Shown here in pieces: positions 9,036 through 42,205 of a stretch of 64,000 nucleotides of DNA; within the stretch, counting starts at the first letter, position 1; every line of letters begins with the position of its first letter. The position numbers were made by a program, and so were the translations under genes. The stretch comes from a virus. Location: IMG/VR virus record IMGVR_UViG_3300020182_000007, one strand, 5' to 3'. The notes under the pieces were generated by a model, which was given only the letters and a program-made list of their open reading frames with translations, was not told the DNA's origin and searched no databases.

Positions 9036-10784
9036 TTATTTCATTAGTCTTTTAAATTTTTGTGCTACTGATTCGTTAACATATACTGAATCATTTATAC
9101 CTGAGGTTCCTTTGTCTTTACCTGAAGTTCCTTTGTCTTTACCTGAAGTTCCTTTGTCTTTACCTGAAGTTCCTTTGTCCTTGCCGCTAGTTCCTTTGTC
9201 TTTACCTGAAGTTCCTTCGTCCTTGCCGCTAGTTCCTTTGTCCTTGCCGCTAGTTCCTTTGTCTTTACCTGAAGTTCCTTCGTCCTTGCCGCTAGTTCCT
9301 TTGTCTTTACCTGAAGTTCCTTCGTCCTTGCCGCTAGTTCCTTTGTCTTTACCTGAAGTTCCTTTGTCCTTGCCGCTAGTTCCTTTGTCTTTACCTGAAG
9401 TTCCTTCGTCCTTGCCGCTAGTTCCTTTGTCTTTACCGCTAGTTCCTTTGTCCTTTGCCGCTTCTTTTTCCTTAGCTTCTTTTTCCTTAGCTTCTTTTTC
9501 TTTCTTTAATTGATCAACAGCATCTGCTTGTTCTTCTTTATTAGGTTCCATATCCTTTAACGCACTTTCTTCATCGCGAAGTCTTGCCTTTAAGTTAGCC
9601 GCTGTTTTTTTAAGTTCGCCCTTATCTGAACCTTCTTCACCCATTGCAGTTTTAAGAACGGATAGCTCTCCTTTAATCTTTTCAGATTGTTTTGCTTTTT
9701 TAACAATATTGCCCTTATCATCCCATCTGTCATTTACAGAAGATTGTAAGTCTTTAGATTGCGCCTTCATCATGTCTACCTTCGCCTTAAGCTTATCTTT
9801 TACAGGCTTCTCAGCATCAGATGCTGCTATTGATGCTTCCATACCTGCAATTTTTAATTTTAGCTTATTAACTTTATCTTGGGCCTTTCTAGCCTTAGGT
9901 GCTCTAATCATAAAATCAATTGCACTTTTCATTGCGCCATCAGCTTCAGTAACTACTGATTCCTTTACGAAATTCTTAAGATCATCTGGATCTATAGAGT
10001 ATTCCACTTCATCCGCATCACTCCAAAGAATAACTTCATCTTTACCAATTTCGTAAATTTCGAACGATGAGTTTTTTAAGATTTCAGATCCATCAACGTC
10101 GTTAGTTTTATCATAAACATCTCCATCAAAATTATCGCTATCTTTTTTGGCTTTAATATACTGTCCTTTTTTAAATTTAGCTTCGTTAACTACTGATTCG
10201 TCTAGAGGATCTAATCCCCAGTAATTAGCCATATCATATCTTACTGGATAAATGTAATAATCTCCAACATTACCTTCAGGTGATTCAATATTTTTAGTAA
10301 GATAATAATCTGTATTTACCATTAATTCTTCAATCCCATAATCTTCAGCATCTTCTTTTGTTTCTTTCTTAAACATTTTAGCAATTTTAGCAAATCTACC
10401 AATAGCAATTATTTCTACAACGTTGTCATTATAATCGACACCAGTATCTCCAACTTTTAAATCTCCTGAAGCTTCAGTAACTACTGATTCACTAAATAAT
10501 CTATTACCAGTATTATCTTCTAAGAGAGATGAAGAAATATAAAATATAGAATTGGCAAAATCTTCAATTACTGAATCTTCTTCTGACATTTCTATATCCT
10601 CAACAATACTTGCTGATAGCTTTTTAAGGTTTAATAAAATATTGTCGACGTCTCTGATTGCTTCTTTTTTAGAATCTCCTACTTTAACCTCAGAGCTCGA
10701 TGTGTTAGAATCAGCAGAAGGTCTAGTTTGAGTTGCTTCTTGGTTTTGAAGTTCTTCGAATAGTAAAACTTTTTTAAATTTCAT
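9036..10784 (-). CDS. Putative internal head (cargo) polyprotein with C-terminal KD(K/E)GTSG repeats
   Basis: N-terminus MKFKKVLLFEE, three ESVV(T/N)EA junctions, a coiled coil and 17 heptad repeats. Tandem late promoter motifs upstream. Confidence 0.65.
   Translation of the reverse strand: MKFKKVLLFEELQNQEATQTRPSADSNTSSSEVKVGDSKKEAIRDVDNILLNLKKLSASIVEDIEMSEEDSVIEDFANSIFYISSSLLEDNTGNRLFSESVVTEASGDLKVGDTGVDYNDNVVEIIAIGRFAKIAKMFKKETKEDAEDYGIEELMVNTDYYLTKNIESPEGNVGDYYIYPVRYDMANYWGLDPLDESVVNEAKFKKGQYIKAKKDSDNFDGDVYDKTNDVDGSEILKNSSFEIYEIGKDEVILWSDADEVEYSIDPDDLKNFVKESVVTEADGAMKSAIDFMIRAPKARKAQDKVNKLKLKIAGMEASIAASDAEKPVKDKLKAKVDMMKAQSKDLQSSVNDRWDDKGNIVKKAKQSEKIKGELSVLKTAMGEEGSDKGELKKTAANLKARLRDEESALKDMEPNKEEQADAVDQLKKEKEAKEKEAKEKEAAKDKGTSGKDKGTSGKDEGTSGKDKGTSGKDKGTSGKDKGTSGKDEGTSGKDKGTSGKDEGTSGKDKGTSGKDKGTSGKDEGTSGKDKGTSGKDKGTSGKDKGTSGKDKGTSGKDKGTSGINDSVYVNESVAQKFKRLMK
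9099..9455 (-). repeat. In-frame 21-bp tandem repeat x17 encoding KD(K/E)GTSG
   Basis: Counted directly. Two codon variants (GGAACTAGCGGC and GGAACTTCAGGT) are interleaved. Confidence 0.95.
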
Positions 10785-10819
10785 AATCTTTTTTTTTTGT
10801 ATTTAATAATATAATAGTT

Positions 10820-10837
10820 TATATATCTTTATATATC
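10820..10837 (-). promoter_or_regulatory. Two tandem GATATATA late-promoter motifs
   Basis: tatatatc at 10820-10827 and 10830-10837, upstream of the 10784 start. Confidence 0.65.
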
Positions 10838-11515
10838 GAACCCATATTTAGGGTGATGACAGACAACATATCCTCCTACTTCTTCACCTATTTTATTTGG
10901 ATTTATTTTGTGCTTTCTGTATAAAGCATCTGCGAATATGAAATCCTCTCCTCTTGGGCCATCTTTCCAATAAACGCCTGTTTTTTTAATATGTATCATT
11001 TGAAAGGTACTAGATATCCAATCTACTTTTACTTTTATAAAGGGTTCATTTTTTATTGTAATTTCATATAGAAACTTACCGAATTTAATATTACCGTACG
11101 AATCTCTAACGTCTGGTATAATGTACATGTTATCAAGTACTATTACCCTGTCTGATTCTTTAATTTTATTATATGCTTTTTCTAATCTATCTTCCATTAA
11201 AAAATCGTCGGTGTCTAAATATGTTATGTAATCAAACTTAGCATGATTTATTCCAATTTGTCTATATGATCCTGGGAATATACCTGATCTTATCTTAGGT
11301 TTTTTTATTAGTAATATATTTGATTGATTACTATAATGTTGATTATATAATGAATTCGTGACCTCGCATCCATCACTCACAATCACTAGCTCACTATTCT
11401 CTAACCCTATTGTCTGGTTAATGAATGAATCAACAGCTCGAAGAAACTTTTGATCAGGGTTTGTCCTAGATCCTGGATATTCTCCCAGGTATGAGATCAT
11501 TATAACACTTATCAT
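10829..11515 (-). CDS. Glycosyltransferase family 2 (GT-A fold)
   Basis: ISVIMISY, ELVIVSDG, RQIGINHAKFDYITYLDTDD (DxD) and GED motifs. Confidence 0.85.
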   Translation of the reverse strand: MISVIMISYLGEYPGSRTNPDQKFLRAVDSFINQTIGLENSELVIVSDGCEVTNSLYNQHYSNQSNILLIKKPKIRSGIFPGSYRQIGINHAKFDYITYLDTDDFLMEDRLEKAYNKIKESDRVIVLDNMYIIPDVRDSYGNIKFGKFLYEITIKNEPFIKVKVDWISSTFQMIHIKKTGVYWKDGPRGEDFIFADALYRKHKINPNKIGEEVGGYVVCHHPKYGFDI

Positions 11516-11519
11516 ACTG

Positions 11520-11585: not shown

Positions 11586-12971
11586 TTATAGAGCGATGTT
11601 CAATACGTTGAACTTTTGGTATTGAGTTTCTGGGTGGAAACCAGCTTTTACTAGAGCGAATCTAGATTTAACAGCTACTTTAGGAGCCATAGTTCCTTCA
11701 GCAATTGTTTGAACTGATTCAGCCATTAAGTAAGGCATGAATACTAATCCAGCACCGTTACCATCGCCTTTTCTACCAACTAAGATTTCATGTACCTCAT
11801 CAGATCCAACAGTTGCACCGTCGAACGGTAATCTTGGGTCAGTATAGATGTTAATACCAGCTACAGAACCTACTGGGTAGATTGCTCCTGCAACTTGTGA
11901 AATTGTGTTAGAGAATGGGTTTGGAACGAATCCAGCAACACCTTGTAATGCAGATGCAACTTTAGCATCAACAACAGCAAAGTTACCAGCTCCTCTTCTT
12001 CCTCTGTTAGCGATCAAGTTAGCAGCAGCCAATACGTGAGTAAGGATTCTTCTGTTAACATCACCATAAGTGTTACCACCTAAAGTGTAATCTAAAGAAA
12101 GTGCAGAGATACCTGACTCAGCCATAGTTCTCATTGTTCCTAAAATGTAAGAGTTAATTGACTGAGTTAATTCGTTAGTCAATACAGCTTCAACTTGAGC
12201 AACAGCATCAACGCCGAATTGCTTAAGATCTTGAACCTGCTCTCTTGTAACTGCAGCTGCAACTTGGAAAGTTTCAGCTTCAACCGCTTTAGAGAATAAA
12301 GAAAGACCCATTACTTTGTCTGGAGTTCTTTCGCCTTCTTCTCTTGAGAATGGTTGAGCATCTAATAGATCGCCATCAGCGTCCTCAGTACCTGAGAATC
12401 CTGGAATATGATCGTTAAGAGCAGCAACTAATTCAGCGTTAGCATATCTACCAACGATAGTTCCTTCTCCTGCAGTAATAGCGTCAACTATTTTGATGAT
12501 ACTTTTACCGTCTAGACGTGAAGTACCAACAACTAAGTCAGCTCCTGCAACTGCATCATCAGTTTTGATGTATGTTGGAGAAACAGTGTTTCTAAGAGTA
12601 CCGCCTTCGTAAACGAAATCTAGGTAAGATAGAAGACCCATTGGACCAGCCATAGGAATTACCGGTACTAAATCAAGTCCGATAGTTTGTGCAGCAACTT
12701 GCATTGCCAAAGGAAGTAAAGTTGGAGCTTTGTCTCCAGAACCTCTTTGTGCGTCAAATCCAGTTGCCATGTTTGGAAGAGTTACAGCACCCATACCACC
12801 AATATTCATATTAGGGTTAAGAGCCATGATGTTTGCATCTTCGTAAAGTTTGTGATTGTGACAGTAAGTAGACATCCAAGCCAACTTAGTTGAATCATTA
12901 ATACCAGTAGCTTCCTCGATTACGGGTGCCCAAGTACTTCTGATCTCTGCCTCATTTATTAATGTAGCCAT
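11586..12971 (-). CDS. gp23: Major capsid protein (gp23-like)
   Basis: W.PVIE, LVPVIPMAGPMGLLSYLDF, Y.PY, PK..VKSRFALV motifs. Lies downstream of portal and protease. Confidence 0.95.
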   Translation of the reverse strand: MATLINEAEIRSTWAPVIEEATGINDSTKLAWMSTYCHNHKLYEDANIMALNPNMNIGGMGAVTLPNMATGFDAQRGSGDKAPTLLPLAMQVAAQTIGLDLVPVIPMAGPMGLLSYLDFVYEGGTLRNTVSPTYIKTDDAVAGADLVVGTSRLDGKSIIKIVDAITAGEGTIVGRYANAELVAALNDHIPGFSGTEDADGDLLDAQPFSREEGERTPDKVMGLSLFSKAVEAETFQVAAAVTREQVQDLKQFGVDAVAQVEAVLTNELTQSINSYILGTMRTMAESGISALSLDYTLGGNTYGDVNRRILTHVLAAANLIANRGRRGAGNFAVVDAKVASALQGVAGFVPNPFSNTISQVAGAIYPVGSVAGINIYTDPRLPFDGATVGSDEVHEILVGRKGDGNGAGLVFMPYLMAESVQTIAEGTMAPKVAVKSRFALVKAGFHPETQYQKFNVLNIAL

Positions 12972-13068: not shown

Positions 13069-13647
13069 TTATAGAATAATATCTCCTAAACCTAATACGC
13101 TTAAAGCCTTTTCAATCTTTTTGTTATTTGATGGTGTTTCTAATTCAAGAAAATTGTACATTGTGTCTGAAGTAGACTTATATACTTTACTTCCATCTTG
13201 TGGTCTAAGAGGTCTTATGTAAGGATAGCTTGATTTCCTTTGCATATCTACAACCCATTCTGCTTCAGGCGTTTTATACCATTCTGGATCTGTTGAAAGT
13301 AATGGATTATCTTCGTTTGAACCCTTAACAAAATTATTATTTAAGTCATATTTAGTCTCATATATTAAATAAAACTTTATAGCTTTATTATTATTGTAAA
13401 CTAAAGCATGCACATCAATAAATTTTAAAGAAGTTTTCTTTAAATTTTTACCTGGATTAGGACCAAAAAAGTTAACACCTTCAATTTTTTTAAGATCTGT
13501 ACCTGTAATTGTTTTGCCAATTGCGCCATTTAGAATAGACAAGGCATTTGCTGCCTTGTCTTCTATATTCTTATCAGTAAATCTACCAAATTTAACTTGT
13601 GATTTGGCTTCATTTATGAATTGCTCAAACAATTTTACATACTGCAT
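13069..13647 (-). CDS. Putative internal head protein (capsid-targeting-type N-terminus)
   Basis: Begins MQYVKLFEQFINEA and lies between scaffold and capsid genes. Confidence 0.6.
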   Translation of the reverse strand: MQYVKLFEQFINEAKSQVKFGRFTDKNIEDKAANALSILNGAIGKTITGTDLKKIEGVNFFGPNPGKNLKKTSLKFIDVHALVYNNNKAIKFYLIYETKYDLNNNFVKGSNEDNPLLSTDPEWYKTPEAEWVVDMQRKSSYPYIRPLRPQDGSKVYKSTSDTMYNFLELETPSNNKKIEKALSVLGLGDIIL

Positions 13648-13665: not shown

Positions 13666-15513
13666 TTATTTATTAAATCTTTTCTTAAATGAATCAGTGT
13701 ACGCTGTTGCATCATATCCGAGACCTTTTTTCTCTTCAACTTTAGATTCAGTTATCATATTTAGTTTCTCCATTACCTTTGCACTTTCTCTAAGATCTCT
13801 AGTTTCCCAGAAGTTTCTTACCTGATACTCAGTATTTAAAGAGTGATATTTAGATTGTGCTGTAATTTGGTTCTTCTTAGCTTCAGAAAGATTTTTCCAT
13901 GTTTCGCCATATTCCTTTGGCATTGCATCAATAAAATATGGTGTAGCATTTTTATTTTCAACAATTAGATTAGAAGATTCGATGATAGATTCAATTTGAC
14001 CCTCAGTCATAAATCCTCTTTTTGATACTGATCTTCTAACTTCTATTTTAGCATCTTCATTCAGAGCGTTGTATTTCTCTTGAACTTTATTTGATACAAT
14101 TTTAAAGAATGTTGGATTTTCATTTTCTTTCTTGGTAGCAGCTTCTACTAGGTTTGAAAGTTTTGAAGCTATTTCGTTTTTGTAAGATTCTTTAGCTACT
14201 TCTTTAGCTCCATCTTCGCCATCAACCAACTCATCTTCAACTTCTTCAGTCTCTTCAGATCTGTCTTTAGCCTTAACGTATTTTTTACCATCAGCATCTT
14301 TAATTTCTGGAGTTTTATCATCTAATTCGCTTTCTAGCTCTTCAGCTGGAAGGTTAAGATCACCTTCATCTTCTAATAATAGATTAGAATTAACAGTTTC
14401 AGCAACATATTCAGCATATTCAGTAACTGATTGCAAACTGTTTTTTAAGTAATCAACATACTCTACTAGTTTTTCTCCAGTTGTTGTACTTTCATTGTGA
14501 GATTCTGCTAAATAGTTAGCGTACTCCTTAATTTTAGAAATACCTTCTGAAAGGTGCTCAGAATACTGAATTCCTTCATCTAGTTTTTCAGCAACATGTT
14601 CTGTATACTGTATAGATTGATCTAGTTTTCCAGATAATTCTTCAGAATACTGAATTCCACTGTCGGCCTTTTCAGCAACATGTTCTGTATACTGTATAGA
14701 TTGGTCTAGTTTTTCTGAAACATATTCCATATATTCCTTAATTCCATTAACGCTTTCTACGATATGATCGTTATGAGCTTTAACTTCATTTAATTCGGTT
14801 TCAGTTACTGCGTCTGCAGTTGGAGTTGAAACGTCCATTGATTCTTTGATTGTCTTAATTTCTTTTGCAAGATACTCAGTGTACTTGTTAAAGTCATCAG
14901 CGTTTACATATTCTGCCATGTCTTCGTTTTCTATGATTTGTGTTTTGTTATTGTTTTCTGTATTATTTATCTCATAAATATAGAGACCGCTTTCGCTTGA
15001 AAATCCAAAAGATTCATTAACTCTTTTAAGCTCTGCATTTTCAAAACCTGGATCGGCTACTAGGTCATAAGTAAATAGTTGTTTAATTTTTACAGTACCA
15101 TTAGATTCAACAGCTCCTGCTGCTCTGCTCGATATTTGAAGAGGTACTCCAGCATCGACTAGAGCCTTTGCTTGTTTACCAGCATCTGTATCTAATAATC
15201 TAATCTTACCTTTAACTTGCTTTGCGTCTTTATCATAATATAACTCTTCTATTACGTGAGACACATTTTTTAAAGAAACATCAAATTGAGAGGGATGATC
15301 TAATTCTCCTAATAGTTTACCAGACTTAATTTTTTGCTGCAATGATTCGATTTGCGGTACGTATTCAGATTCGGTGTAGATTCTTTGGTTTTTATTCTTT
15401 ACATCTATTTCACCAAATATACCTTCTAAAACGTAATCTTTCTTTCCTTCATTTGCTACCGAAAGTGGATTCGATGACATTTCGAGAATCAAAAGGTTAT
15501 TATTATTTTTCAT
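13666..15513 (-). CDS. gp21: Prohead protease (gp21-like) fused to scaffold/core (gp22-like)
   Basis: LEGIF, N.N.RIY, LGELDHP, ISSRAAG, DLVADPGFENA motifs, followed by a long acidic helical region. Confidence 0.9.
   Translation of the reverse strand: MKNNNNLLILEMSSNPLSVANEGKKDYVLEGIFGEIDVKNKNQRIYTESEYVPQIESLQQKIKSGKLLGELDHPSQFDVSLKNVSHVIEELYYDKDAKQVKGKIRLLDTDAGKQAKALVDAGVPLQISSRAAGAVESNGTVKIKQLFTYDLVADPGFENAELKRVNESFGFSSESGLYIYEINNTENNNKTQIIENEDMAEYVNADDFNKYTEYLAKEIKTIKESMDVSTPTADAVTETELNEVKAHNDHIVESVNGIKEYMEYVSEKLDQSIQYTEHVAEKADSGIQYSEELSGKLDQSIQYTEHVAEKLDEGIQYSEHLSEGISKIKEYANYLAESHNESTTTGEKLVEYVDYLKNSLQSVTEYAEYVAETVNSNLLLEDEGDLNLPAEELESELDDKTPEIKDADGKKYVKAKDRSEETEEVEDELVDGEDGAKEVAKESYKNEIASKLSNLVEAATKKENENPTFFKIVSNKVQEKYNALNEDAKIEVRRSVSKRGFMTEGQIESIIESSNLIVENKNATPYFIDAMPKEYGETWKNLSEAKKNQITAQSKYHSLNTEYQVRNFWETRDLRESAKVMEKLNMITESKVEEKKGLGYDATAYTDSFKKRFNK
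14585..14703 (-). repeat. 35-nt direct duplication, 84 nt apart, in the scaffold 14-residue repeats
   Basis: ttttcagcaacatgttctgtatactgtatagattg at 14585-14619 and 14669-14703. Confidence 0.85.
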
Positions 15514-15921: not shown

Positions 15922-17517
15922 TTAGAAGCCCATTTCATCATCTCCTGAATCTTCTCCGGCCTCGTCTGCAGTGTCTTTTGCTTTTGCTGAATCGTTTGCT
16001 GTAATGTCATCGTCGGTCAACTTAAGATACCTCTTAACAAGATAATCTAATGAGAAGTAATATTCTTCTTCCATTGTTTCTTGATTTGTTGTCATTAAAC
16101 TATCTCGCATGCTACCTATAAATTCAAGTCTTTTTTCCATGATCTCCATATCCTTTAACTCAGAGAATACGTTTTCTTCATTAAACCTTAAAGCAACTTG
16201 TGTTTTAAATTGAGGATCGTTTTCGAACTCTGGATATTTAAGACACATTTGAATATAAAGCGGCTTTACTAATATTTCTTGAAATACAGATCTAAGTCTC
16301 TTAATAAACTTAGAGAATTTAATTTCGTCTCTTATCATACCATCAGCTGCCATGTTGAAATCTCCTCCACCGTCTTCGTATAAAAACCTAGAGTATGGAA
16401 TTTTAGAAACATGTTTTAATTTATCAGAAAAGTATTTTAGAGCTTCTGTGTCTGAAAGATCTGGACCATCTCCACCTAGTGTTTCAATTTCAGGAGTTTC
16501 TCCCTCCTTGCTTGGTAACCAATATTCTTTATTGAATTGAAGCATCGGCTTACCATCTGTTTGTAGAGATGCACTATCCCAATCAAAATCAACGTTCTCT
16601 TTATATGAATGCATTAACTGCGCTAGAGATTGCTTTGCTCTAGTTTTAGATTTACCACCAACTGGTATAATAAACTTCATTCTAAAACTAGAGTTTGTGG
16701 TTGCCCAAATAACTCTAGTATGTTCCATTATTCTTAGTAGGTTAAATGCCCTTACAAGTCTTTCAATGTATGATGCTCTAGAAGCTGTTGTTATTGAAGA
16801 ATATGAAAGATATATTATTTGAGAATCATATAATTTTCTCTGCTTTATTGGATCATCTTTATATTGTACCCATATCTTCTTACCATCATCATGATTATAA
16901 CCTGGTACTAATGTAATTGGATCGATCTCTTTAAATCCTATTACATCTTTTTGGTCAGGTGAATAAACAATCTCAAATGCTAAGTAACCATCAATTAAAA
17001 ATTTACGATAGTAATACCAAGCTGATTGATCTGTTGTAAATCCAAAATATTGATAGATTTGCTTAAAGTATTTCTGAAGATCCTTTTGAACCTCATCGGA
17101 AACATCCATTCCAAGAATTTCAGGCTGCGCAAAAAAGTTCTTTTCATCATATACTACGGTCTCATCACATAGAATATCGAGAATGTCTTCTATCTCATCA
17201 TTTAGCGCAAATCTTCTTAAATCATCTCTTTTACCTGCATAATCTTTGTCAAAAAACGGGATGTTTTTCTTTAAATTAGTATCGGTCATAGACATTGCGG
17301 CAAATGCACCGTAAATGTCATCGTTATCCCATCCCATTGGGTTCATTTGACCATACCCAATTTGATCCTCCATTGGACCGATCGCTTGAGACTGTCTAAG
17401 TACTAGATCGTCATATCTCATACCGAACGAAGATAATGCCTTCAGAGAGTCTGAAAGACTAAAATTAATCTTGTTGGTACTTAATGGACCATTTCTTTTT
17501 TCTGTAAATCCTGCCAT
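15922..17517 (-). CDS. gp20: Portal protein (gp20-like)
   Basis: DGYLAFE, SYIERL.R.FN.LRIME, IPVGG, EYWLP..EG..PEIETLGG motifs. Confidence 0.95.
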   Translation of the reverse strand: MAGFTEKRNGPLSTNKINFSLSDSLKALSSFGMRYDDLVLRQSQAIGPMEDQIGYGQMNPMGWDNDDIYGAFAAMSMTDTNLKKNIPFFDKDYAGKRDDLRRFALNDEIEDILDILCDETVVYDEKNFFAQPEILGMDVSDEVQKDLQKYFKQIYQYFGFTTDQSAWYYYRKFLIDGYLAFEIVYSPDQKDVIGFKEIDPITLVPGYNHDDGKKIWVQYKDDPIKQRKLYDSQIIYLSYSSITTASRASYIERLVRAFNLLRIMEHTRVIWATTNSSFRMKFIIPVGGKSKTRAKQSLAQLMHSYKENVDFDWDSASLQTDGKPMLQFNKEYWLPSKEGETPEIETLGGDGPDLSDTEALKYFSDKLKHVSKIPYSRFLYEDGGGDFNMAADGMIRDEIKFSKFIKRLRSVFQEILVKPLYIQMCLKYPEFENDPQFKTQVALRFNEENVFSELKDMEIMEKRLEFIGSMRDSLMTTNQETMEEEYYFSLDYLVKRYLKLTDDDITANDSAKAKDTADEAGEDSGDDEMGF

Positions 17518-23998: not shown

Positions 23999-23999
23999 A

Positions 24000-25753: not shown

Positions 25754-25769
25754 ATATAGTTATTTAAAG

Positions 25770-25797
25770 GTTATATACAATTTTAGTCTTCTGTTTC
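25770..25797 (-). promoter_or_regulatory. GAAACA-N16-TATAAC promoter for gp41, partly inside the uvsX 3' end
   Basis: Exact motif and spacing. Confidence 0.65.
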
Positions 25798-29775: not shown

Positions 29776-29791
29776 TTTATATTTTGTTTTA

Positions 29792-34634: not shown

Positions 34635-35219
34635 TTAATATTCAAAAGGCGGGGTACCGTAATCCTTTCTCTTAACAGCGTACCATGTTCCCTTAGTTTC
34701 AAAGTACCACCATTGTGTAGTTTCTATAATCCATATTTTACCGTTAGGTGATACTTGTTTATAACCTCCTCTAGTAAAGTTCTTAGTTACTGGTACTCCA
34801 TCTTCCCATGTCTTATTAGTAGATTGTGCATCCATTGATTTGCCAGAAAAATATCCTAAATAAACCCTTTCTTCTGCATTTTCATCTTTTGCAAATTGCA
34901 TTAATGCAGTAGAAGGTTTAGCTGATTCGCTTAAATTAAATGATTCAAACGTGCTAACGTATTTCATCTTTTTCTTTTTCTTTTTCTTTTTAAATATTTC
35001 TTTAGCGTCTCCTTGTCCTGATGGTACATCTCCAGAACCTGTAGTTCCTCCTGATGGAAGTTGAAGCTTACCCATACCTCCCATATTTCCTGGATGCGAT
35101 CCAGAACCAGGACTAATACCGTCATATTCGTTTAATTCAGATTCTGAAAGTTTTTCATTTTTTGTGCTAGACATATTGTTTATAATTTTATTTTTTAAAT
35201 TATTACCAAATGTATCCAA
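34635..35219 (-). CDS. Gly-rich / poly-Lys protein with an internal capsid-targeting-like motif (start may be 35174)
   Basis: GNMGGMG...GSGD segment, K8 tract, then MKYVSTFESF. Confidence 0.6.
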   Translation of the reverse strand: MDTFGNNLKNKIINNMSSTKNEKLSESELNEYDGISPGSGSHPGNMGGMGKLQLPSGGTTGSGDVPSGQGDAKEIFKKKKKKKKMKYVSTFESFNLSESAKPSTALMQFAKDENAEERVYLGYFSGKSMDAQSTNKTWEDGVPVTKNFTRGGYKQVSPNGKIWIIETTQWWYFETKGTWYAVKRKDYGTPPFEY

Positions 35220-37038
35220 AATCTTCTACTTGCTTTAATTTATCAGATACATCTTTAGCATATCTTTTAATTTCTTGATCGTAGTAATTTCCAGAATATC
35301 CAGAATCTTTTTCTATTTTAGCTTGGTTAGAAGAACTTACATATCTTTGGAAATCATCAAGGATATATTGCATGTGCCTTGCTGCTTCTGATAGTTTTGC
35401 TTCGCTACCCTTTTTGTTTCTTCCTATTATAATATCTCCGTATTTTCCTTTTTCTCCTTTAACAAGACCGTCTTTAATTTGCTTAGTTATAGTATCGATA
35501 GCATCGGCAACCATTTTATCTAAAGGCATTTTTGAGGCTCTATCTGAAATAATAGTGTTGTATCTGTCTAAGTTAGCTTTCTTAAAATCTTTATCAGATT
35601 TAAAAGATATAGCGCCCGCTTTAGAGTCAGCTCTTTCATCTCTTTTTGCGGTTGTAGAATATCTTGCTTTAAGAATATCTAAATCTAAGCAATATGCTCT
35701 ATCTGCTAATTCAGCAACTTTAGTTAAACTTGAAATACCACTTCCATAAGAATCATTAGAACTTGATTTGTCAAAACCAGAACTATCATCTCTTTTAGTC
35801 TTTTGTAAAGATTTTTTTCTATCTTTTGAATTGTATTTGTTTTGCCATTGCATATTCATCCATTCATTAGAACCATCTGTAATTGCTAATAAAGTATTTG
35901 CTGGAATAGTGCTAACGCCATAAGAACCACGAGCAGCGTATGGATTTTCTTTTTCGTTTGTTGTAAAGTATAAATAAACTGCGTTTTGTCTCTTTTCTTT
36001 TCTTGCTGCTTGAGGATCTATTTCAATAATATCTACATCTTGAACTTTATCAAGTGCAATTTTAGACATGTTGTAAAATGCTTTAGGAAGATCCTTAGGC
36101 ATTTTGTTACCTCCAGTTAAGATGCTTGCAAGTTTTACAGATGCAAACGCCTCATTAATTAAAGATTCATTAGTCATTGAAACTAATTCTTGTGCAATTT
36201 TCTTTGCTTTAGCACCTTTATGTCCGTATGATTCTACCGTGTCTAGTGCATCATCAATTTCCATTCCATGCAATTCTCCCATGTCTCCGCCTCTTTCGTC
36301 TAAAAGATCAGCTAAGATTGATTCAGCCTCTGTAGCTTCTTTTGATTCAGTTAAAAAGTTTACAAAGTCTCTAAATGATTCATATATAAATTGTGATTTC
36401 TTTTCTTCCTTTATTTGTACTGGGAATTTCTTGCCTCCAAATTCGAATTCTTTTTTACCTTCGTCTTTTGCTTTTTTAGCGGCTGCAACGAATGCTCTAC
36501 CCTCGTCGAGTTCTTCTTCATTTACTGTAATTTGTGAAAGTGCTTTTTTACCAAATTTTGAAAGTGAAATACCCTCTTCAGATATACTAAAGAATTTATT
36601 ATTTCTTCGCATCCACCTAGGAGAATCGGTTGACATTTCTTTTAAGATACTATTAAACTCTTCTTGTGTAATTTTACCATCAGAAATAGCCTCAAGCATT
36701 TTATTTCTAATTTTTGCGCTTTTACCAACAGTAACTGCGGGATAGCTTTCAGTATATCTTCTCTTGATAACAATCTTAGATTCATTAGCAGAATTAGATT
36801 CTTCGATGTAATCGTTTAAACCAGCATCGTCCCATCCGTCTTCAGATGCTAATACTGCTTCAAGATCTTTTCTAGCTCCAGTTAGTTCAACTTCTGGAAA
36901 ACCACTTGGTCCTTCGTTATTAACAATTTCCATTTTAACCTTATGTTTCTTAAGTAATTTTTTCAGTACTCTAGATTCTGGATCTGTTGCGTCCATTATA
37001 ACCGATGCTTCAGTTATAAATTGTTTAAAATTTATCAT
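35203..37038 (-). CDS. Putative internal head polyprotein
   Basis: MINFKQFITEA start, modules bounded by xNE/xTE sites, AATATATA promoter-like motif upstream. Confidence 0.6.
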   Translation of the reverse strand: MINFKQFITEASVIMDATDPESRVLKKLLKKHKVKMEIVNNEGPSGFPEVELTGARKDLEAVLASEDGWDDAGLNDYIEESNSANESKIVIKRRYTESYPAVTVGKSAKIRNKMLEAISDGKITQEEFNSILKEMSTDSPRWMRRNNKFFSISEEGISLSKFGKKALSQITVNEEELDEGRAFVAAAKKAKDEGKKEFEFGGKKFPVQIKEEKKSQFIYESFRDFVNFLTESKEATEAESILADLLDERGGDMGELHGMEIDDALDTVESYGHKGAKAKKIAQELVSMTNESLINEAFASVKLASILTGGNKMPKDLPKAFYNMSKIALDKVQDVDIIEIDPQAARKEKRQNAVYLYFTTNEKENPYAARGSYGVSTIPANTLLAITDGSNEWMNMQWQNKYNSKDRKKSLQKTKRDDSSGFDKSSSNDSYGSGISSLTKVAELADRAYCLDLDILKARYSTTAKRDERADSKAGAISFKSDKDFKKANLDRYNTIISDRASKMPLDKMVADAIDTITKQIKDGLVKGEKGKYGDIIIGRNKKGSEAKLSEAARHMQYILDDFQRYVSSSNQAKIEKDSGYSGNYYDQEIKRYAKDVSDKLKQVEDFGYIW

Positions 37039-37058: not shown

Positions 37059-38900
37059 TTATATATTCTTTAAAAATTGATTAAACGTTTGTAGTGTACT
37101 CTCATTAGTAGACATAGATGTTTCTAATTTTAATTTTAGTTCACTATACATTGAGTGTATTTGTTTAGGAGTTAATTTTTTAAATAGTTTTTCATCATCA
37201 TCTAATAATGCATTTCTAACTTGAGTTGCTGATATATTATCATTATTTCTTGGAATTTCAAAAAGGCCAAAATCAGTCCTAACTCCTAAATCTTCTCTGT
37301 ATTCTGGCTTATCTACCTGATATGAATATGTTTTAATTCTATCAGATCCTGTACCCCATAACACCGGCTCATATCCATCTGCTCTCATTGTATTAAACAT
37401 TAAATCTATAGCACCTCTGTCTATAACATATACCTTCTCTATTGGGTATTTCTTTTTAAGTTGCTTTAACATTTTAACTTGAGTATCTTCGTCATATGGT
37501 CTCTTAAAAGCATCTTCTTTTTTCTTATTCTTTGCCTTAACTAAAAAGATTACTACTGGATATCCATTTTGTTTATTAATTGTTTCAACAACTTTAGCAT
37601 GTCCCATCGTAAACGGCTGGAATCTGCCAACAAACATGTTTACTGGTTTTTTACCCTGTTCTGGATATTTTACAGTTAATGCCTCAGTAATTGGGCTTAC
37701 TTGATGCTTTAGATTTTCGTGGTTTAAGAATGTTTTAAAATTCATCATTGATAAATCTTCATTGTTTTGTAACATTACAACCGCTTCTATTTTTTTAACT
37801 ATCTCATTGATTTGCTGTAGTAGATCTGCGTTAATAATATCAGTTTCTTTAATTCTTTTCTTATTAAAAGAACTCAGTGCTATTTTGTAAAGCTCAGAAA
37901 GTATAGGGTTTGAAACTAGTTCTATTGTTTTTTCATTTTTAATAAACGCAGTGTTTAGTGAAAATTCTGGAGAATCTGCAAAACCCGCTGATTCAAATTT
38001 AACTCCAATGTATTTTGATGCGTTCTTATCTATATATGCATTAAATAATTGTGAAGTTAATTCAATGTACCTAAGGTCAGCTTTCTTTTCTACTAACTCT
38101 ATTTTTTCAATATCGAATGCTGAAAAGAATTCAACAATTTGTAGTAGTGCTATTTGGTACATGTCAGATGGCTTTCTATTCTCTCTTGGAGATTCAGCTT
38201 CACAAATTTTAAAATTCTTAACGCTTTTTCCATTAAAGAAATTAATTACTAAAGAATCTATAGTACTATCTAAATCGTCGTTAAGTGCTGTAGAATTTAA
38301 AGAAGAATTAAAAATACTGTACATTTTTCTAGAAAACGAAATGTCTTTAAAGTTTTCAGAATACTCAGACTCTGAAACTGACATTAGTTTAGTGAGTTCT
38401 TCTTTTTGAAGGTCGGTTAACTTACCTTGATGTAGAACCTGTGGCCTTTGTACTTCTAATATATCTGCCCATTTGTTTAGAATTTTTGGATCTCTAATTA
38501 CTTTTTTAATTAATGTTTCATCAACTGGGTTAAGAATCTGGATATGTGTTAACATTAAATTGTTCTTTGGTATTCTATCGTATTTAATGTTAACCGTTTT
38601 TGAATCAATCATATAGTCAAATCCAAATTTCCAATCTAATGGCATTTCTTTTTTACCAGCATCTTCTAGCGCATTAAAGTGAGAGATTGCATTCTCATAG
38701 TACCTCACGATTGTTCTATCAACAAGATTCATTGGATTCTTACCACCACTTTTGTAATGATTAAATCCACTGTTTGTTTTTTGTACATGAAAATTTGATG
38801 CTTGTAATTTTTCAGTTACAACGCATGAATGTTCTAGCATTTGCTGAAAATCATTTATGCTCGATTCACTAAAGTAAGTTCTTAAATTCTGTAATGCCAT
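37059..38900 (-). CDS. Degenerate ligase-fold domain fused to a HIGH-family nucleotidyltransferase (cytidyltransferase-like)
   Basis: N-terminal TEKLQAS (KxDG-like). C-terminal VGRFQPFTMGH and ISATQVR. Confidence 0.7.
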   Translation of the reverse strand: MALQNLRTYFSESSINDFQQMLEHSCVVTEKLQASNFHVQKTNSGFNHYKSGGKNPMNLVDRTIVRYYENAISHFNALEDAGKKEMPLDWKFGFDYMIDSKTVNIKYDRIPKNNLMLTHIQILNPVDETLIKKVIRDPKILNKWADILEVQRPQVLHQGKLTDLQKEELTKLMSVSESEYSENFKDISFSRKMYSIFNSSLNSTALNDDLDSTIDSLVINFFNGKSVKNFKICEAESPRENRKPSDMYQIALLQIVEFFSAFDIEKIELVEKKADLRYIELTSQLFNAYIDKNASKYIGVKFESAGFADSPEFSLNTAFIKNEKTIELVSNPILSELYKIALSSFNKKRIKETDIINADLLQQINEIVKKIEAVVMLQNNEDLSMMNFKTFLNHENLKHQVSPITEALTVKYPEQGKKPVNMFVGRFQPFTMGHAKVVETINKQNGYPVVIFLVKAKNKKKEDAFKRPYDEDTQVKMLKQLKKKYPIEKVYVIDRGAIDLMFNTMRADGYEPVLWGTGSDRIKTYSYQVDKPEYREDLGVRTDFGLFEIPRNNDNISATQVRNALLDDDEKLFKKLTPKQIHSMYSELKLKLETSMSTNESTLQTFNQFLKNI

Positions 38901-38914: not shown

Positions 38915-40201
38915 TTACCGTCCGTATTTTATTATACCCATAAGCTGGTTTATAGCAGCAAATGTACCTGTTAGTTTAAATGTCTTACCATTATATACGA
39001 ACACAAGCCCTTCAGTTGGGATAATTGATTCTATTCCACCTATTCTATCTAGTCTTTTAAGTTCAGATTCAACCTTTTCTATTTGGTCAATACTTCCTCC
39101 TTTTTTAATAGCCTCGGCCTCAGTTCTAATTTGATTATGTAACCTTTGCATTTCAGCATCTGGGTTTGCAGCAACAAAGTTACTAGCATTCATTAAGATA
39201 ACACTACCTAGTTCTAAGAATAAATCTTCAAATGGTCTAATGTTTTCTTTTTGCTTCTTCTTAACGTTTTCTTTATCAAATTTCTTAATCAATGCAGATT
39301 GATCCTTTCCAAGTTCTTTATCAAGACTTCTTATATTAAGAGTTTTCTTGTCATCATATGCCCATCTTAATAATAAACCTTCTTTATAATCTTGTGTTAA
39401 ATCCGGAAAGTTCTTATCAATAGTTTCTCTCCACCACATTTCATGGTATCTTGAAACCTCGTCAGCATCTGTTAAATTATAACGAGTTCTTAGGTCTTCA
39501 ACTTTCTTAATGAATTTTGCTTTATTAGCCTCAAAATCAATGTCCTTACCAAGTTTAATGATTTGTGGGGGAATTATTGAAAATGTTTTACCCATATCAA
39601 GCTTAAGGTCTTTAAGAGCCTTTGCAATTGATGCAGCGTATTTTGTTTCCTCTCCTATTTCATTACCTTCACCATCAGTATGTTTAATACCGTGAAACTG
39701 AATAATATCCCTGTCGTAATAGATTACATTTGGGTTCTTCGAGTAGATTAGCTCCATATTCATAAAACTCTTACCATTATTAAAAACCTCTAAGTCTTTT
39801 GCTGGTAGCTTATTTAATGAATTTGCTAAATCTTCTGCTGCGAATTGAAAAGTATCTCTTACTAATGTACTTCCATGGTCTTTAAATTTATCTTTGAATT
39901 GTTGGAGAGTCATTGGATTCCTCATATCATTAATACCTCTGGCAAATTTAACCTCTCCATCCATTACGGTTGCAAATAAGTTTTGTCCGTCTGTTTTTTC
40001 AGTAGCCTCTTCTTCAAAGTTAAGTTCGCCTCTTAAGCCAAACTCAACGATCTTTTTAAAGTCACCAAACGTTAAACTCTTTTCATCAAATGGATGTGAC
40101 ATATGTCCTGCTGCTCCACCTTCTAAGATTAGTTTAGATTCATAAATATTTCCGTTAGATCTCTCTACTAAGAATTCTCCGTATGATAATAATTTGTTCA
40201 T
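38915..40201 (-). CDS. RNA/DNA ligase-fold nucleotidyltransferase
   Basis: GHMSHPFD, motif I TEKTDG, NMEL, EGLVF, FKLTG. TATAAATA at 40215-40222 upstream. Confidence 0.65.
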   Translation of the reverse strand: MNKLLSYGEFLVERSNGNIYESKLILEGGAAGHMSHPFDEKSLTFGDFKKIVEFGLRGELNFEEEATEKTDGQNLFATVMDGEVKFARGINDMRNPMTLQQFKDKFKDHGSTLVRDTFQFAAEDLANSLNKLPAKDLEVFNNGKSFMNMELIYSKNPNVIYYDRDIIQFHGIKHTDGEGNEIGEETKYAASIAKALKDLKLDMGKTFSIIPPQIIKLGKDIDFEANKAKFIKKVEDLRTRYNLTDADEVSRYHEMWWRETIDKNFPDLTQDYKEGLLLRWAYDDKKTLNIRSLDKELGKDQSALIKKFDKENVKKKQKENIRPFEDLFLELGSVILMNASNFVAANPDAEMQRLHNQIRTEAEAIKKGGSIDQIEKVESELKRLDRIGGIESIIPTEGLVFVYNGKTFKLTGTFAAINQLMGIIKYGR

Positions 40202-40228
40202 TTTATTTAGTTTTTATTTATAGTATGA

Positions 40229-42205
40229 TTATCCTAATGAACTTGTTAGCATTCCAACAGCAGCTCCATAGTCTCCATCAACTTTACCTAAAATACCATC
40301 AATAACTTCATTTGCCTTTGCTTCGTCAAAATCTTTTCCAAATGCCTTTTGTAAAACATTAGTCGCATATTCTTTAAAGTCTTCATCAGAAGTAACTTCT
40401 GCTTCATTAACAATTGATTCTTCAACCTTTACTCCAAATCCATATTTAATAACTTCACCGGATTCAAATCTTATCTCTTGAACTCCTCCATTGTTTGTGA
40501 TTGATATTACAGTGCCATATTCTGGGTAAGTTTCTCCGACGATCCATTCGCTAGATAACATTGTACTTTCAGTTACCTTATAAGTTTTTCCGTCAAAATC
40601 AAATTCTTTATCTCCAGCTTCTTTAGCTTTTCTAACTGCATCTCCGAAAGCGTTACCTTCTTCAATTTCAGCTTCAGTAACTATTGATTCATTGTATAAA
40701 TGAACATAGTTGCTTCCTTTTTCAGAATAAACTGATTTAATTTCAAATTCTTTTTGTGCTTTAGTATAATATGCTTTAAAGAATAAGTTACCGTCTAATT
40801 CTCCAAAGAAATGATCTGATTTACCGATAAAGAATTCAGCGTTTGGATAAAGCTCTAAAACTTCTTCTTTTGTTTTAGCCTTTAAAACATCTCTGTTAAA
40901 GTCTTTTACAAATTTAGCTTCAGTAACTACTGATTCTTGAACGTTGTTTTCCCACCAGTCTTGGAGTTTTTCAAATTCTGAATCACCCATGTTTGAAATC
41001 ATAAAATCTATAATATCTTCATAGTTATCTTTTTCATCTTGATAGAATCCAGGAGTATCGATATAATCTTTACCCATGATTTTCTTGATTTGAGCCTCTC
41101 CCATGCCATCAATTTCTTCTAAGAAGTCTTCAAAATCTTTGGTGTTTTTAAAACCTTTACCTTCAGTAACTACTGATTCTTTAATTCCTAATTCTTTTAA
41201 GTTTTTAACGTATTTTCCAGCCTCTTCTTCGTTATCATCAGCAGCATGCGCCAATAAACCAGCTGCGATTAATCTTTTGTAGATTTCTCCTTTAACTAAT
41301 TCAAAGTCTATTGAATCACTTGTATTTTCCCAAGTATCTGCTACAAATTCTGGATCAATCCAACCATAACCTCTTTTAATATCTTTAATCATGTCATTAA
41401 GGTCCATCTCGAATCTTTTTACAGCGCCTTCGACAATCTTTTTAGATTCATTTAGTTTAGAACTAATATCTACTCTTACATCTTCTCCTTCAAACTGTGC
41501 CTGAAATAGATTTACTAAATCTTCTGCTATTTTAGGCTCTCCAATAGACTCTAAATAAAGAGCAGTACCTTCGACTATTCCAATTCCAGACCAGCCTGCT
41601 GCGTTCGATATTCTACCAGCAACTTGCGAGATAGCGAATGTTATTTTAGATCCTGGAATTTTAATTTCCATGCCTTTGAGTTCAGCAAGCTTTACAACTA
41701 CCTTTCCAATATTACCCTTAATCTTTTTCATAGTAGGGTACGCTTCTCTAGAAAAGTTAGCGTCTTCCATTGCATCAAAGTATATTTGCTTCAATACTCC
41801 TAAAGCGTGTAACTTTGAGTTTTTATTAGAGAACGCAGAATATTCATTAAATATTTTAACATATTGGTTAAACACTTTTTTAGCGTCTCTTTTACCAGTA
41901 ATAATAACAGCTTCATTAGCCATATAATCTTCGAATTCTGGTGCAATTTCTATGGATTCTAAAATGTTAGCTCCATTAAATGAGTATACTCCTGATTCGT
42001 TAACTTTAATTCCTTGAATTCTGTTAAAAAATTCTTCTCTGTTTTCTTCTTCAAGTTCAGAAACTTTAGTTACTCCGTACTCTTTTAAAAGATCTCTAAA
42101 AGATCTTGCAGATTCTTCTCTTACTACTGTGTTATTAGATTCTAATTCAGCTGCGATTTTAGTCGAGTTAGTTTTTGCAAATTGTTCAAATGATTGTAAT
42201 GCCAT
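40229..42205 (-). CDS. Putative internal head polyprotein with ES(V/I)V(T/N)E junctions
   Basis: MALQSFEQF start, four such junctions, late promoter at 42242-42249. Confidence 0.65.
   Translation of the reverse strand: MALQSFEQFAKTNSTKIAAELESNNTVVREESARSFRDLLKEYGVTKVSELEEENREEFFNRIQGIKVNESGVYSFNGANILESIEIAPEFEDYMANEAVIITGKRDAKKVFNQYVKIFNEYSAFSNKNSKLHALGVLKQIYFDAMEDANFSREAYPTMKKIKGNIGKVVVKLAELKGMEIKIPGSKITFAISQVAGRISNAAGWSGIGIVEGTALYLESIGEPKIAEDLVNLFQAQFEGEDVRVDISSKLNESKKIVEGAVKRFEMDLNDMIKDIKRGYGWIDPEFVADTWENTSDSIDFELVKGEIYKRLIAAGLLAHAADDNEEEAGKYVKNLKELGIKESVVTEGKGFKNTKDFEDFLEEIDGMGEAQIKKIMGKDYIDTPGFYQDEKDNYEDIIDFMISNMGDSEFEKLQDWWENNVQESVVTEAKFVKDFNRDVLKAKTKEEVLELYPNAEFFIGKSDHFFGELDGNLFFKAYYTKAQKEFEIKSVYSEKGSNYVHLYNESIVTEAEIEEGNAFGDAVRKAKEAGDKEFDFDGKTYKVTESTMLSSEWIVGETYPEYGTVISITNNGGVQEIRFESGEVIKYGFGVKVEESIVNEAEVTSDEDFKEYATNVLQKAFGKDFDEAKANEVIDGILGKVDGDYGAAVGMLTSSLG

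Follow-up and report, generated by a model that had tools for sequence, protein, structure and literature searches.

Bacterial polymorphic toxins such as CdiA (VENN motif) and Rhs (core motif) have a variable module bordered by a short conserved peptide, whose coding DNA presumably allows replacement of the module by recombination; each, however, has one variable C-terminal toxin with an immunity gene, and there is neither an array nor loading into a capsid. Other counterparts of the locus described here come from phages. The T4 internal proteins IPI, IPII and IPIII and the Alt protein combine a gp21-family protease with a short leader that ends in hydrophobic-x-Glu followed by Ala, their cargo bodies being diverse and conservation limited to the targeting part (PMC3012670); in the T4 record, ipII and ipIII have an identical leader stretch of ~32 nt. 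In the PeSL system, short conserved cassettes flank non-essential units of T4-type genomes and mediate their shuffling by recombination, with exchange between neighbouring copies excising the unit (Arbiol et al. 2010, PMC2839356; Comeau et al. 2014, PMC4122927). Within the gp38 adhesin, variable segments are exchanged in frame in or near conserved glycine-rich coding motifs (Trojet et al. 2011, PMC3157838). Polyvalent proteins of phages and conjugative elements carry many unrelated domains on one polypeptide delivered with the DNA, and an analogy to viral polyproteins with release by proteolysis has been drawn for them (Iyer et al. 2017, PMC5512222). Finally, many head proteins of phiKZ, 201phi2-1 and SPN3US, inner-body and ejection proteins among them, are processed after Glu at a short motif by a protease related to gp21, sometimes at several sites each; that account of phiKZ-type head proteins does not describe swappable module arrays or DNA-conserved junctions (PMC9026906).

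Here we analyse a 64,000-nt stretch of DNA (the window, taken as a whole) from IMGVR_UViG_3300020182_000007, an uncultured marine T4-like giant phage. Its capsid protein is closest to those of phages of Bacteroidota, and capsid and portal are of the gp23/gp20 type, with the megaphage LR756500, Lak phages and Tenacibaculum phages as nearest relatives. Three of its genes, on the minus strand, encode what are probably head-cargo polyproteins (A, B and C), in which a leader would load the chain, a protease would cut it and the DNA of a junction cassette would mediate exchange of modules. No description of this polyprotein and cassette system was found in the published literature.

Polyprotein A (582 aa; ORF 9036-10784), whose gene occupies a syntenic position following the capsid gene, is made up of a leader (aa 1-104), modules A2 (105-201) and A3 (202-280) and a 302-aa core (281-582), a basic coiled coil with ~17 KDKGTSG repeats. 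The junction peptide is ES(V/I)V(T/N)E, with the presumed cut (written ↓) after the second Glu and before Ala or Gly. Gene A has three such cassettes: A1 (ESVVTE↓A, 10472-10490, an exact 19-mer), A2 (ESVVNE↓A, 10181-10199, two mismatches) and A3 (ESVVTE↓A, 9944-9962, exact). Polyprotein B (658 aa; ORF 40229-42205) lies in a syntenic position between a UvsW-like helicase and a 428-aa gene. It comprises a leader (1-98), a segment at 99-258, an F16-like segment (259-348), modules F3 (349-429, 81 aa) and F1 (430-511, 82 aa), a module of ~84-90 aa (512-601) and the conserved 57-aa C-terminal module F0 (602-658); degenerate sites at 98 and ~258 bound the two longer segments. Its cassettes are B1 (ESVVTE↓G, 41161-41179, exact), B2 (ESVVTE↓A, 40918-40936, exact), B3 (ESIVTE↓A, 40672-40690, one mismatch) and B4 (ESIVNE↓A, 40402-40420, three mismatches), the last preceding F0. 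Polyprotein C (611 aa; 35203-37038) has a 10-aa T4-like capsid-targeting leader, mosaic N-terminal modules and a conserved basic C-terminal domain of 315 aa, and its ESLINE↓A site (36151-36168) is spelled with other codons. The preliminary description had read A and B as strings of 70-90-aa modules, which needs correcting in view of the two longer segments of B and of A with its leader, two modules and long core.

A pattern search for the 19-mer returned seven matches in the window (four exact and three near) against 0.05 expected, and none of 100 shuffles reached seven. The search agreed with the preliminary description on the four exact copies and located the near-copies that it had put close to 10190, 40410 and 40680 at cassettes A2, B4 and B3. 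All seven are minus-strand direct repeats, in frame as ES(V/I)V(T/N)E, within genes A and B, 30 kb apart, and the flanking sequences are unrelated right up to the junction motif.

Codon bias had been allowed for from the start as a partial cause of this identity, and together with chance or metagenome mis-assembly at short repeats it could in principle produce both apparent identity and apparent mosaicism. The genome is AT-rich with skewed codon usage, and most of the comparators are metagenome contigs. However, the repeat is shorter than typical final assembly k-mers, the canonical six-codon spelling has a probability of ~0.017 from window codon usage, four identical copies would arise by chance at ~1e-6 (arithmetic from window codon frequencies), and background codon-pair frequencies are 20-50% per pair. 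The same 19-mer occurred in frame at 106 IMG/VR loci, all occurrences (123/123) were in frame inside long ORFs, and the same architectures were recovered from 3-4 separate datasets each, with one protein cluster on 23 contigs. At 85 non-canonical junctions, TCA, GTA, GTT and ACT were still used in 72, 90, 94 and 90% of cases, compared to backgrounds of 33, 41, 49 and 45%. Using an unbiased helicase-anchored sample, fetched independently of the junction sequence, we found four of nine ESVVTE sites to be canonical versus 0.02 expected, and a junction codon identity of 78.5% between sites with unrelated flanks versus ~49% expected from window codon frequencies. Synonymous conservation of the junction exceeds codon and codon-pair bias, also in unbiased samples; codon bias accounts for little of the identity, and bias, chance and mis-assembly taken together are hardly credible as its source. 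The junction DNA is nonetheless not invariant: synonymous variants exist and many B orthologs are without a strict site, so the cassette is not obligatory.

In wild relatives, domains have been gained, lost and exchanged exactly at the junction link. Compared with its closest relative, P0004, polyprotein B is identical at 347 of 348 residues up to the first ESVVTE, near-identical from the second ESVVTE onward and ~99% identical overall outside the swap. Between these two exact 19-mers (cassettes B1 and B2, the left and right borders), a 75-aa module of B is replaced in P0004 by an unrelated 80-aa module, which recurs at 91% identity in two other polyproteins. In the A orthologs P0124 and P0133, the leader passes to the core via a single VNE↓ or INE↓ site, in the position taken in A by three cassettes and two modules. 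The A2-A3 block is found at 88% identity inside B-type proteins, and at least 40 proteins contain module A3 (86-99% identity), flanked by no fewer than 15 different neighbours on the upstream side and no fewer than 12 on the downstream side. The length of syntenic B orthologs varies from 173 to 1029 aa, and their module strings differ, some running in reversed order. With the swap, the A orthologs without modules and an indel at the DNA level, module content is not invariant across relatives.

That indel separates two phage populations, whose L013-type and L073-type genes are 99.3% identical in DNA and differ by 243 nt, equal to one module; it is bounded by a 25-nt direct repeat beginning with the 19-mer, and each form was present in 3-4 separate metagenomes. 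A second indel, of 228 nt, has 13-nt homology in an ESFI-type joint. Only these two distinct indels and the one swap were found as recent events, the latter established at the protein level only. Nucleotide identity of ~95% sets in with the first base of one cassette and extends to a few bases beyond the end of the next, and in six independent contexts the limits of identity blocks coincide with cassette edges or lie within a few bases of them. Homology breakpoints coincided with [VILM]xE↓[AGS] sites at 72%/66%, compared to 23% for random positions and 4%/2% for an xD control. The preliminary description had proposed an in-frame swapping of modules at the junctions. The P0004 swap, the 243-nt indel and the identity blocks ending at cassettes bear this out, and the exchange falls exactly there. 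It had also proposed that the junction doubles as recombination microhomology; the indel repeats, the identity-block edges and the synonymous conservation strongly suggest that the cassette is indeed a recombination substrate.

An alternative account is that recombination is illegitimate or random and selection acts as a filter only, with in-frame linker joins surviving and shared junction DNA reflecting recent common descent. The variable junction spelling and the many orthologs without strict sites agree with this, as does the modest excess of junction codon identity (78.5%) over the flanks (71-73%) in homologous pairs, which counts against a special role for the cassette; moreover, each inserted module copies a junction along, which would keep junctions young. 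Yet both recent indels end inside identical junction repeats (25 and 13 nt), the identity blocks stop at or near cassette edges in all six contexts, codon identity between junctions whose flanks are entirely unrelated is as high as that of homologous DNA, and even at non-canonical sites the preferred codons account for 72-94%. We consider selection acting alone to be unlikely.

The window encodes T4-type recombination genes at 21222-26895 (minus strand), namely gp46/gp47-like (21222-23998) and UvsX/RecA-like (25783-26895) genes, as well as UvsW (42241-43749) and gp32 (45478-46389), all identified by Pfam, and these together could use short homologies. For T4-type homologous recombination, however, 18-25 nt of homology is a short stretch, and repeats in direct orientation 30 kb apart would make lethal deletions possible as well; both points count against the cassette being used in this way.

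Alternatively, a sequence-specific nuclease or recombinase might recognize the junction core and drive exchange in the manner of homing endonucleases or shufflons. The core forms an imperfect 6+6 inverted repeat (TCAGTA-GT-TACTGA) with two of the six pairs at synonymous positions, and a gene for a TnsA-like endonuclease is located at 18157-18633. However, the palindrome is disrupted in the common Asn and Ile variants, no compensating changes accompany variant spellings, and the RNA hairpin is weak (5 bp, -3.8 to -5.4 kcal/mol) and not significant in the context of the window. With all copies in direct orientation and no recombinase seen within the 64 kb, this mechanism is very improbable.

The candidate for cutting the junctions is a prohead protease (S77, gp21-type) fused to a scaffold-like acidic tail (13666-15513, minus strand), whose gene sits between the gp20-type portal and gp23-type capsid genes. 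It matched Pfam PF03420 (2.4e-13, 50.5 bits compared to a cut-off of 27) and PF20034 (7e-7) and carries the PHROG annotation head maturation protease. The gp23-type major capsid protein (11586-12971, minus strand; Pfam Gp23, 6.7e-43) has a junction-type motif, LINE↓A, at its N-terminus, and the sequence MANL(I/L)NE(A/S) is conserved there across the orthologs fetched. More generally, [VIL][TN]E↓[AGS] both ends T4-like capsid-targeting leaders and sits at the capsid N-terminus, and strict-type sites are nearly confined to the capsid protein, the protease, A, B, C and four small proteins with leaders. A 192-aa protein (13069-13647, minus strand) resembles a T4 internal protein in its T4-like capsid-targeting leader ending INE↓A, and two small genes at 29329-30052 (minus strand; 148 and 86 aa) encode leaders with the first 11 residues in common that end INE↓S and ITE↓G; in all, three small proteins have C-like leaders ending INE↓ or ITE↓. 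A 125-aa protein (47424-47801, minus strand) has a targeting-like N-terminus, with an ILTE↓G site following at residue 26. The first 13 residues of C match the T4 IPIII leader (NC_000866) at 8 of 13 positions, including FI-x-E↓ASV; the C leader aligns with those of both IPIII and IPII, and the T4 record gives ITE↓A for IPI. A and B have a common F-E-(E/Q)-(F/L) core, with the first cut-like site only at residue 104 (A) or 98 (B); their leaders of ~100 aa are unlike the 10-aa targeting sequence, which counts against the head-cargo reading.

From the presence of an S77/gp21 protease and the motif common to leaders and capsid N-terminus, we infer that the junction is a prohead-protease cut site; to that extent the assignment made in the preliminary description is kept. 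The motif could instead be an uncleaved structural linker in beads-on-a-string proteins (decoration, fibre or non-virion), with a coincidental likeness to a protease site, and B and C do sit among replication and repair genes, outside the head module. T4 internal-protein genes, however, are likewise scattered outside the head cluster. The same motif ends T4-like targeting leaders and marks the capsid N-terminus, A orthologs have a single such site precisely at the leader/core border, and the protease belongs to the gp21 family, which is Glu-specific (PMC9026906). A purely structural linker is improbable on these grounds.

If A, B and C are head-cargo polyproteins, the capsid-targeting N-terminal leader would carry the whole chain into the prohead core, and the S77 protease would cut after the second Glu of (V/L/I)-N-E-S-V-V-(T/N)-E↓(A/G), freeing each 55-100-aa domain as a separate small, mostly acidic protein within the capsid. 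The joint, an almost fixed 18-25-nt cassette, would at the same time offer the phage recombination system a short in-frame homology. Crossovers there could remove, add, exchange or rearrange whole modules, whether inside one gene, among the three loci or between co-infecting phages, each keeping the reading frame and the cut site, so that one loading tag would serve many interchangeable passengers from a very large shared module pool.

Such an arrangement differs from each of the known systems. In T4, each gene encodes a single cargo with a leader of its own, whereas here one leader precedes up to about ten cargo domains with repeated internal sites; because conserved DNA lies on both sides of each module, unlike in T4, single modules can be excised or inserted in frame. 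As with PeSL, indels and replacements between close relatives are bounded by a cassette, but PeSL is an intergenic early promoter with a stem-loop terminator that moves whole genes, while the present cassettes are coding, lie in frame inside ORFs, have no significant hairpin, move domains and encode the presumed cut site. The glycine-rich motifs of gp38 form the structural core of one domain with the exchanged segments as loops, in contrast to the autonomous and presumably separated domains here. Polyvalent proteins combine recognizable enzymatic or anti-restriction domains with embedded peptidases; no known domain was detected here, the junction cassette is uniform and processing would occur in trans through the prohead protease. 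In phiKZ-type phages, a different lineage, the motif is S/A-x-E and multiple sites remove propeptides, compared to V, I or L at P3 in the present junctions.

The cargo bodies have no sequence similarity to the T4 internal proteins: a tblastn search of 50,697 phage records with A, B and the 192-aa protein as queries gave no match, including to IPI, IPII, IPIII and Alt. The cargo contained no PHROG families, and a Pfam scan of 65 polyproteins (~47,000 residues) returned only DUF5824 (three), DUF6329 (two) and two single weak matches; modules had no Pfam, PHROG or clear fold match, and these results lend no support to the suggestion in the preliminary description that they are injected effectors directed at host defences. 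They are predicted to be autonomous domains, two of them reaching AlphaFold pLDDT values of 93 and 90 when folded alone. For module F1, examined for a RelE/HigB/YafQ-like RNase toxin fold, the top PDB match by Foldseek was HigB (E 0.17, prob 0.90, TM 0.39), VIA-align gave Z 3.7 for BrnT and 4.6 for its best overall match, and an ESM Atlas structure search gave HigB/YafQ clusters at TM 0.53-0.61; all of these are below reliable thresholds, and there was no sequence-profile match.

It is possible, although we put it forward tentatively, that the system works as an integrase-free cassette array inside genes, through whose protease-site joint, shared and conserved at the DNA level, hundreds of small proteins delivered by the capsid could be exchanged in frame across a whole phage community. 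The canonical spelling might then be kept as maximizing recombination partners (second-order selection), many modules might be early effectors against host defences or physiology, and other phage clades might follow the same principle with joints matched to their own proteases. Were the head-cargo reading correct, large phages would diversify proteins co-delivered with DNA through one loading tag, one protease rule and one DNA joint, and any small domain could become a plug-in passenger. This would extend T4 concepts (the capsid-targeting sequence, hyperplastic internal-protein loci, PeSL and adhesin motif shuffling) to in-frame exchange at the domain level and suggest a natural design for multi-protein loading of T4-type capsids. 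It would also provide a very large pool of candidate injected proteins and a simple sequence rule for finding more. We counted at least 187 module clusters, none in a known family, in 110 polyproteins and at least 1065 related proteins in public metagenomes.

The exact 19-nt cassette starts at positions 9944, 10472, 40918 and 41161, with near copies at 10181, 40672 and 40402, all on the minus strand. This pattern search returned seven matches in the window compared to 0.05 expected, and every copy reads ES(V/I)V(T/N)E in frame within one of two minus-strand polyprotein genes, A (9036-10784, 582 aa) or B (40229-42205, 658 aa). The repeat reported in the preliminary description, with four exact, in-frame copies across two genes, is thus real. 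When the seven sites were aligned with 30-nt flanks, identity was confined to the motif and the 1-2 bases after it. A weaker eighth site, ESLINE, uses different codons and lies at 36151-36168 in a third polyprotein gene, C (35203-37038, 611 aa). Under the codon usage of the window, the canonical six-codon spelling has a probability of ~0.017 and the chance of four identical copies is ~1e-6 (arithmetic from window codon frequencies); the identity is explained neither by chance nor by codon bias, raised in that description as a partial source.

Outside the window, the exact 19-mer is present in 106 IMG/VR stretches, and all 123 of its occurrences are in frame as ESVVTE within long ORFs. These loci encode 110 distinct polyproteins, each of which has between one and nine strict junctions, and related proteins in public metagenomes number at least 1065. 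The consensus of 253 distinct sites is (V/L/I)-N-E-S-V-V-(T/N)-E↓(A/G)-(K/E), where the arrow marks the presumed cut point. Many junctions open with N-E-S, a sequon-like triplet that is probably a coincidence. An assembly artefact was rejected because all occurrences are in frame within long ORFs and the architectures recur in several datasets.

Codon choice at the junctions was assessed using 85 sites that depart from the canonical 18-mer and so could not have been selected by the pattern search. At these sites, Ser was TCA in 72%, the first Val GTA in 90%, the second Val GTT in 94% and Thr ACT in 90% of cases, compared to background values of 33, 41, 49 and 45%, respectively, and 20-50% for codon pairs. 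Sampling 80 loci by their helicase gene gave 33 distinct junctions, and four of the nine ESVVTE sites among them had the canonical spelling versus 0.02 expected. Codon bias and codon-pair bias were both rejected, as the non-canonical sites and the helicase-anchored sample stay above background. Pairs of junctions with unrelated flanks shared 78.5% of codons at identical residues, compared to ~49% expected from window codon frequencies and 71-73% in homologous flanks. Because this identity persists despite unrelated flanks, junctions behave like homologous DNA regardless of their surroundings. The spelling is not absolute, and many orthologs have no strict junction at all.

The junction core (for example, 40921-40934) is also an imperfect 6+6 inverted repeat with a 2-nt centre, in which four pairs are dictated by the amino acids and two fall at synonymous sites. 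The idea that an RNA hairpin or palindrome keeps the spelling fixed was rejected: only a weak hairpin can form, and the Asn and Ile variants disrupt pairing without compensating changes. A search for covariation supporting a function of this inverted repeat found none.

Splitting the polyproteins at junctions yielded 187 clusters of modules, which have a median length of 83 aa and are mostly acidic. Individual families occur in many contexts, including F0, the conserved 57-aa C-terminal module of B (13 different left neighbours), F1 (6 left and 7 right neighbours) and F3 (7 left and 5 right). BLAST homology between polyproteins ended at a strict junction 31%/25% of the time versus 6% at random, and at the general pattern hydrophobic-x-Glu↓[AGS] in 72%/66% versus 23% at random (Asp control, 4%/2%); many of the off-motif breakpoints were on inspection degenerate joints, with ESTVNE, ESMVTE and ESFINE among them. 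The gene order helicase, B, 428-aa gene, 613-aa gene and C was seen repeatedly in dozens of contigs, and the polyprotein loci are therefore orthologous. Across these loci, B orthologs range from 173 to 1029 aa and differ in their module strings (for example, F7-F4-F1-F0 versus F7-F4-F1-F3-F0), and in the window F3 precedes F1. Tandem duplication of a single module was rejected as an origin, since the modules inside A and inside B belong to different clusters. In one A ortholog (L135, 9586-12066; L136, 11623-14103), a ~75-aa module is present in three tandem repeats with the joint FESVE(I/T)EDVNE↓G, which is module duplication within a gene with a variant linker. Almost every B ortholog carries F0: the fetched loci supplied 73 distinct F0 sequences, 70 of which were aligned with a mean column identity of 81%. 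The B gene may have F0 as its functional core; the shortest B orthologs (L225-L228 and L242; ~209 aa) consist of a leader and two tandem F0 copies.

Exchange at junctions was also seen between close relatives. The nearest relative of B is P0004, a 663-aa protein that matches B at 347 of 348 residues as far as the first ESVVTE; near-identity resumes at the second ESVVTE and runs to the end. In this protein-level comparison, the B module bordered by the 41161 and 40918 copies of the exact 19-mer gives way in P0004 to an unrelated 80-aa module, which is found in two other polyproteins at 91% identity. At the DNA level, only two distinct recent indels were identified among pairs at least 94% identical. 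The first is a 243-nt insertion or deletion, in either direction, between two gene types (L013 and L073) with 99.3% identity; it is bounded by a 25-nt direct repeat opening with the 19-mer, and the long and short forms occur in four and three metagenome datasets, respectively. The second is 228 nt long with 13-nt homology in an ESFI-type joint. In a six-way DNA alignment around F1, a block of ~95% identity opens with the initial base of the upstream cassette and stops a few bases beyond the downstream cassette, with unrelated sequence outside.

In the closest A ortholog of other architecture, P0124, and in P0133, the leader joins the core via a single VNE↓ or INE↓ site, exactly where A carries two modules, A2 and A3, and three cassettes. 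The A2-A3 pair has an 88% identical copy inside B-type proteins ending in F0, and A3 alone is found in at least 40 proteins (86-99% identity) with many different neighbours, in one case straight after a 12-residue targeting leader. In a capsid-anchored sample of 80 loci, the slot after the capsid gene is always occupied by an A-type gene whose leader and C-terminal end are conserved; strict junction modules are rare in this slot and ESVVTE modules almost never present, which suggests that the modules of A are a lineage-specific gain and not a conserved feature. Together, the swap in B, the presence or absence of A2-A3 and the 243-nt indel bear out in orthologs the proposal that modules are gained, lost and exchanged at the junctions.

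The remainder of A varies in other ways. Residues ~440-565 (9112-9513) comprise ~17 tandem KDKGTSG heptads, and heptad copy number is the main difference from P0123, a protein 97% identical to A. A-orthologs of other phages have other low-complexity runs in this region (ET, GS, KAAAD, TDDTK and EPTQ). In many of them (L108, L111, L113, L142 and L159-L162), the leader cut site is directly followed by a hydrophobic, Gly/Ala-rich stretch resembling a membrane helix and then a basic patch, which hints at a possible role of the A core as a membrane-active ejection protein; the A of the window is without the helix-like stretch.

The prohead protease of the window belongs to the S77 family. Strict sites of the form [VILMF][VILMFA][TN]E↓[AGS] were found in the capsid protein (residue 7), the protease, A, B, C, a 192-aa protein and three small proteins, and only one occurs elsewhere among the remaining coding-strand ORFs of at least 80 aa in the window. 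The N-terminal site of the capsid protein is kept in orthologs fetched by capsid anchoring. Leaders of the window proteins resemble the capsid-targeting sequence of T4, as taken from the T4 record: IPII and IPIII of T4 have a 10-residue leader ending in FIAE↓A and IPI has ITE↓A, and C has a 10-residue leader ending in FITE↓A followed by Ser-Val, as in IPII and IPIII. According to the literature, IPIII needs no more than its first 10 residues to enter the head, and these are cleaved off by the protease. Based on these similarities, we infer that the junctions are cut by the prohead protease, that the polyproteins are loaded via the leader and that modules are released within the capsid. The gp21-type proteases of giant phages cleave after Glu in short motifs (PMC9026906), and T-even internal proteins are diverse, with the targeting sequence alone conserved (PMC3012670). 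In the T4 genes ipII and ipIII (L267 = NC_000866, 5417-6416), the first ~32 nt, coding for the capsid-targeting leader, are identical, and this pair is a two-copy precedent for a targeting and cut-site cassette conserved at the DNA level.

Folded alone, F0 gave a three-helix bundle (pLDDT 93) and F1 two helices and a sheet (pLDDT 90), and because both models are confident the two families are predicted to be autonomous domains. Structure searches returned no significant match for either model, the F0 bundle being generic. F1 showed repeated sub-threshold likeness to RelE/HigB/YafQ-type toxins, as well as sub-threshold Ugi-like matches; sequence searches gave no support to the toxin likeness, which is a lead and not a result. 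Searches of 65 polyproteins using Pfam and PHROGs gave almost no matches, and an anti-defence role of the modules is speculation.

Individual parts of this system are known. Targeting and processing of this kind are established in T4; T4-type genomes also recombine at short conserved motifs, in the case of PeSL cassettes (PMC2839356) and the glycine-rich motifs of adhesins (PMC3157838), and multi-domain delivered proteins have been described (PMC5512222). The motif strings appeared in no paper of the literature searched, nor did the combination, in which one ORF encodes an array of autonomous domains, each bordered by the same in-frame cassette that doubles as a presumed cut site, with gain, loss, swap and reordering at the level of domains.

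All genes of the window are on one strand (GC ~32%). Its T4-like head block comprises a gp20-type portal (15922-17517), an S77 gp21-type prohead protease (13666-15513) with its protease domain in the N-terminal ~200 aa and an acidic scaffold-like tail fused to it, the 192-aa protein (13069-13647) and a gp23-type capsid protein (11586-12971), followed by a GT2 glycosyltransferase (10829-11515) between the capsid gene and A, all on the minus strand; the glycosyltransferase was found in only part of the relatives. B is placed between a UvsW-like helicase and the 428-aa gene (38915-40201, minus), with the 613-aa gene (37059-38900, minus), which has a cytidylyltransferase-like domain, as the next gene before C. 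In dozens of contigs these two genes accompany the polyprotein loci as conserved neighbours, and the 428-aa protein has a targeting-like N terminus without a strict cut site. UvsX/RecA-like, gp46/47-like, gp32, gp41-like and gp44-like proteins are also encoded.

The best relatives of the capsid protein are from the uncultured megaphage LR756500 (50% amino acid identity), Lak phages (41%) and Tenacibaculum phages (35%). Using tblastn against INPHARED, we found no cultured relatives of A, B or the 192-aa protein; only the capsid protein matched, at no more than 50% identity. Contigs with the exact B sequence reach 213,804 bp, and samples from ENA, JGI, Logan and Tara yielded relatives. Capsid relatives, contig sizes and sample origins point to a jumbo T4-like phage that is uncultured and, judging from the Tara samples, apparently marine. 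Its hosts are probably Bacteroidota, as suggested by the capsid relatives alone, with marine Flavobacteriia as likely candidates. Polyproteins are not mentioned in the 'moraphages' paper, which deals with large Bacteroidota phages from aquatic habitats, possibly relatives. A stand-alone TnsA-like endonuclease domain (158 aa; PF08722, 2.3e-19; 18157-18633, minus), located immediately upstream of the portal region, may be a homing-type nuclease. Finally, the family-B DNA polymerase is split into two minus-strand genes (27255-28457 and 33109-34512), between which lie ribonucleotide reductase genes (30194-31819 and 32054-33034) and two small leader-bearing genes.
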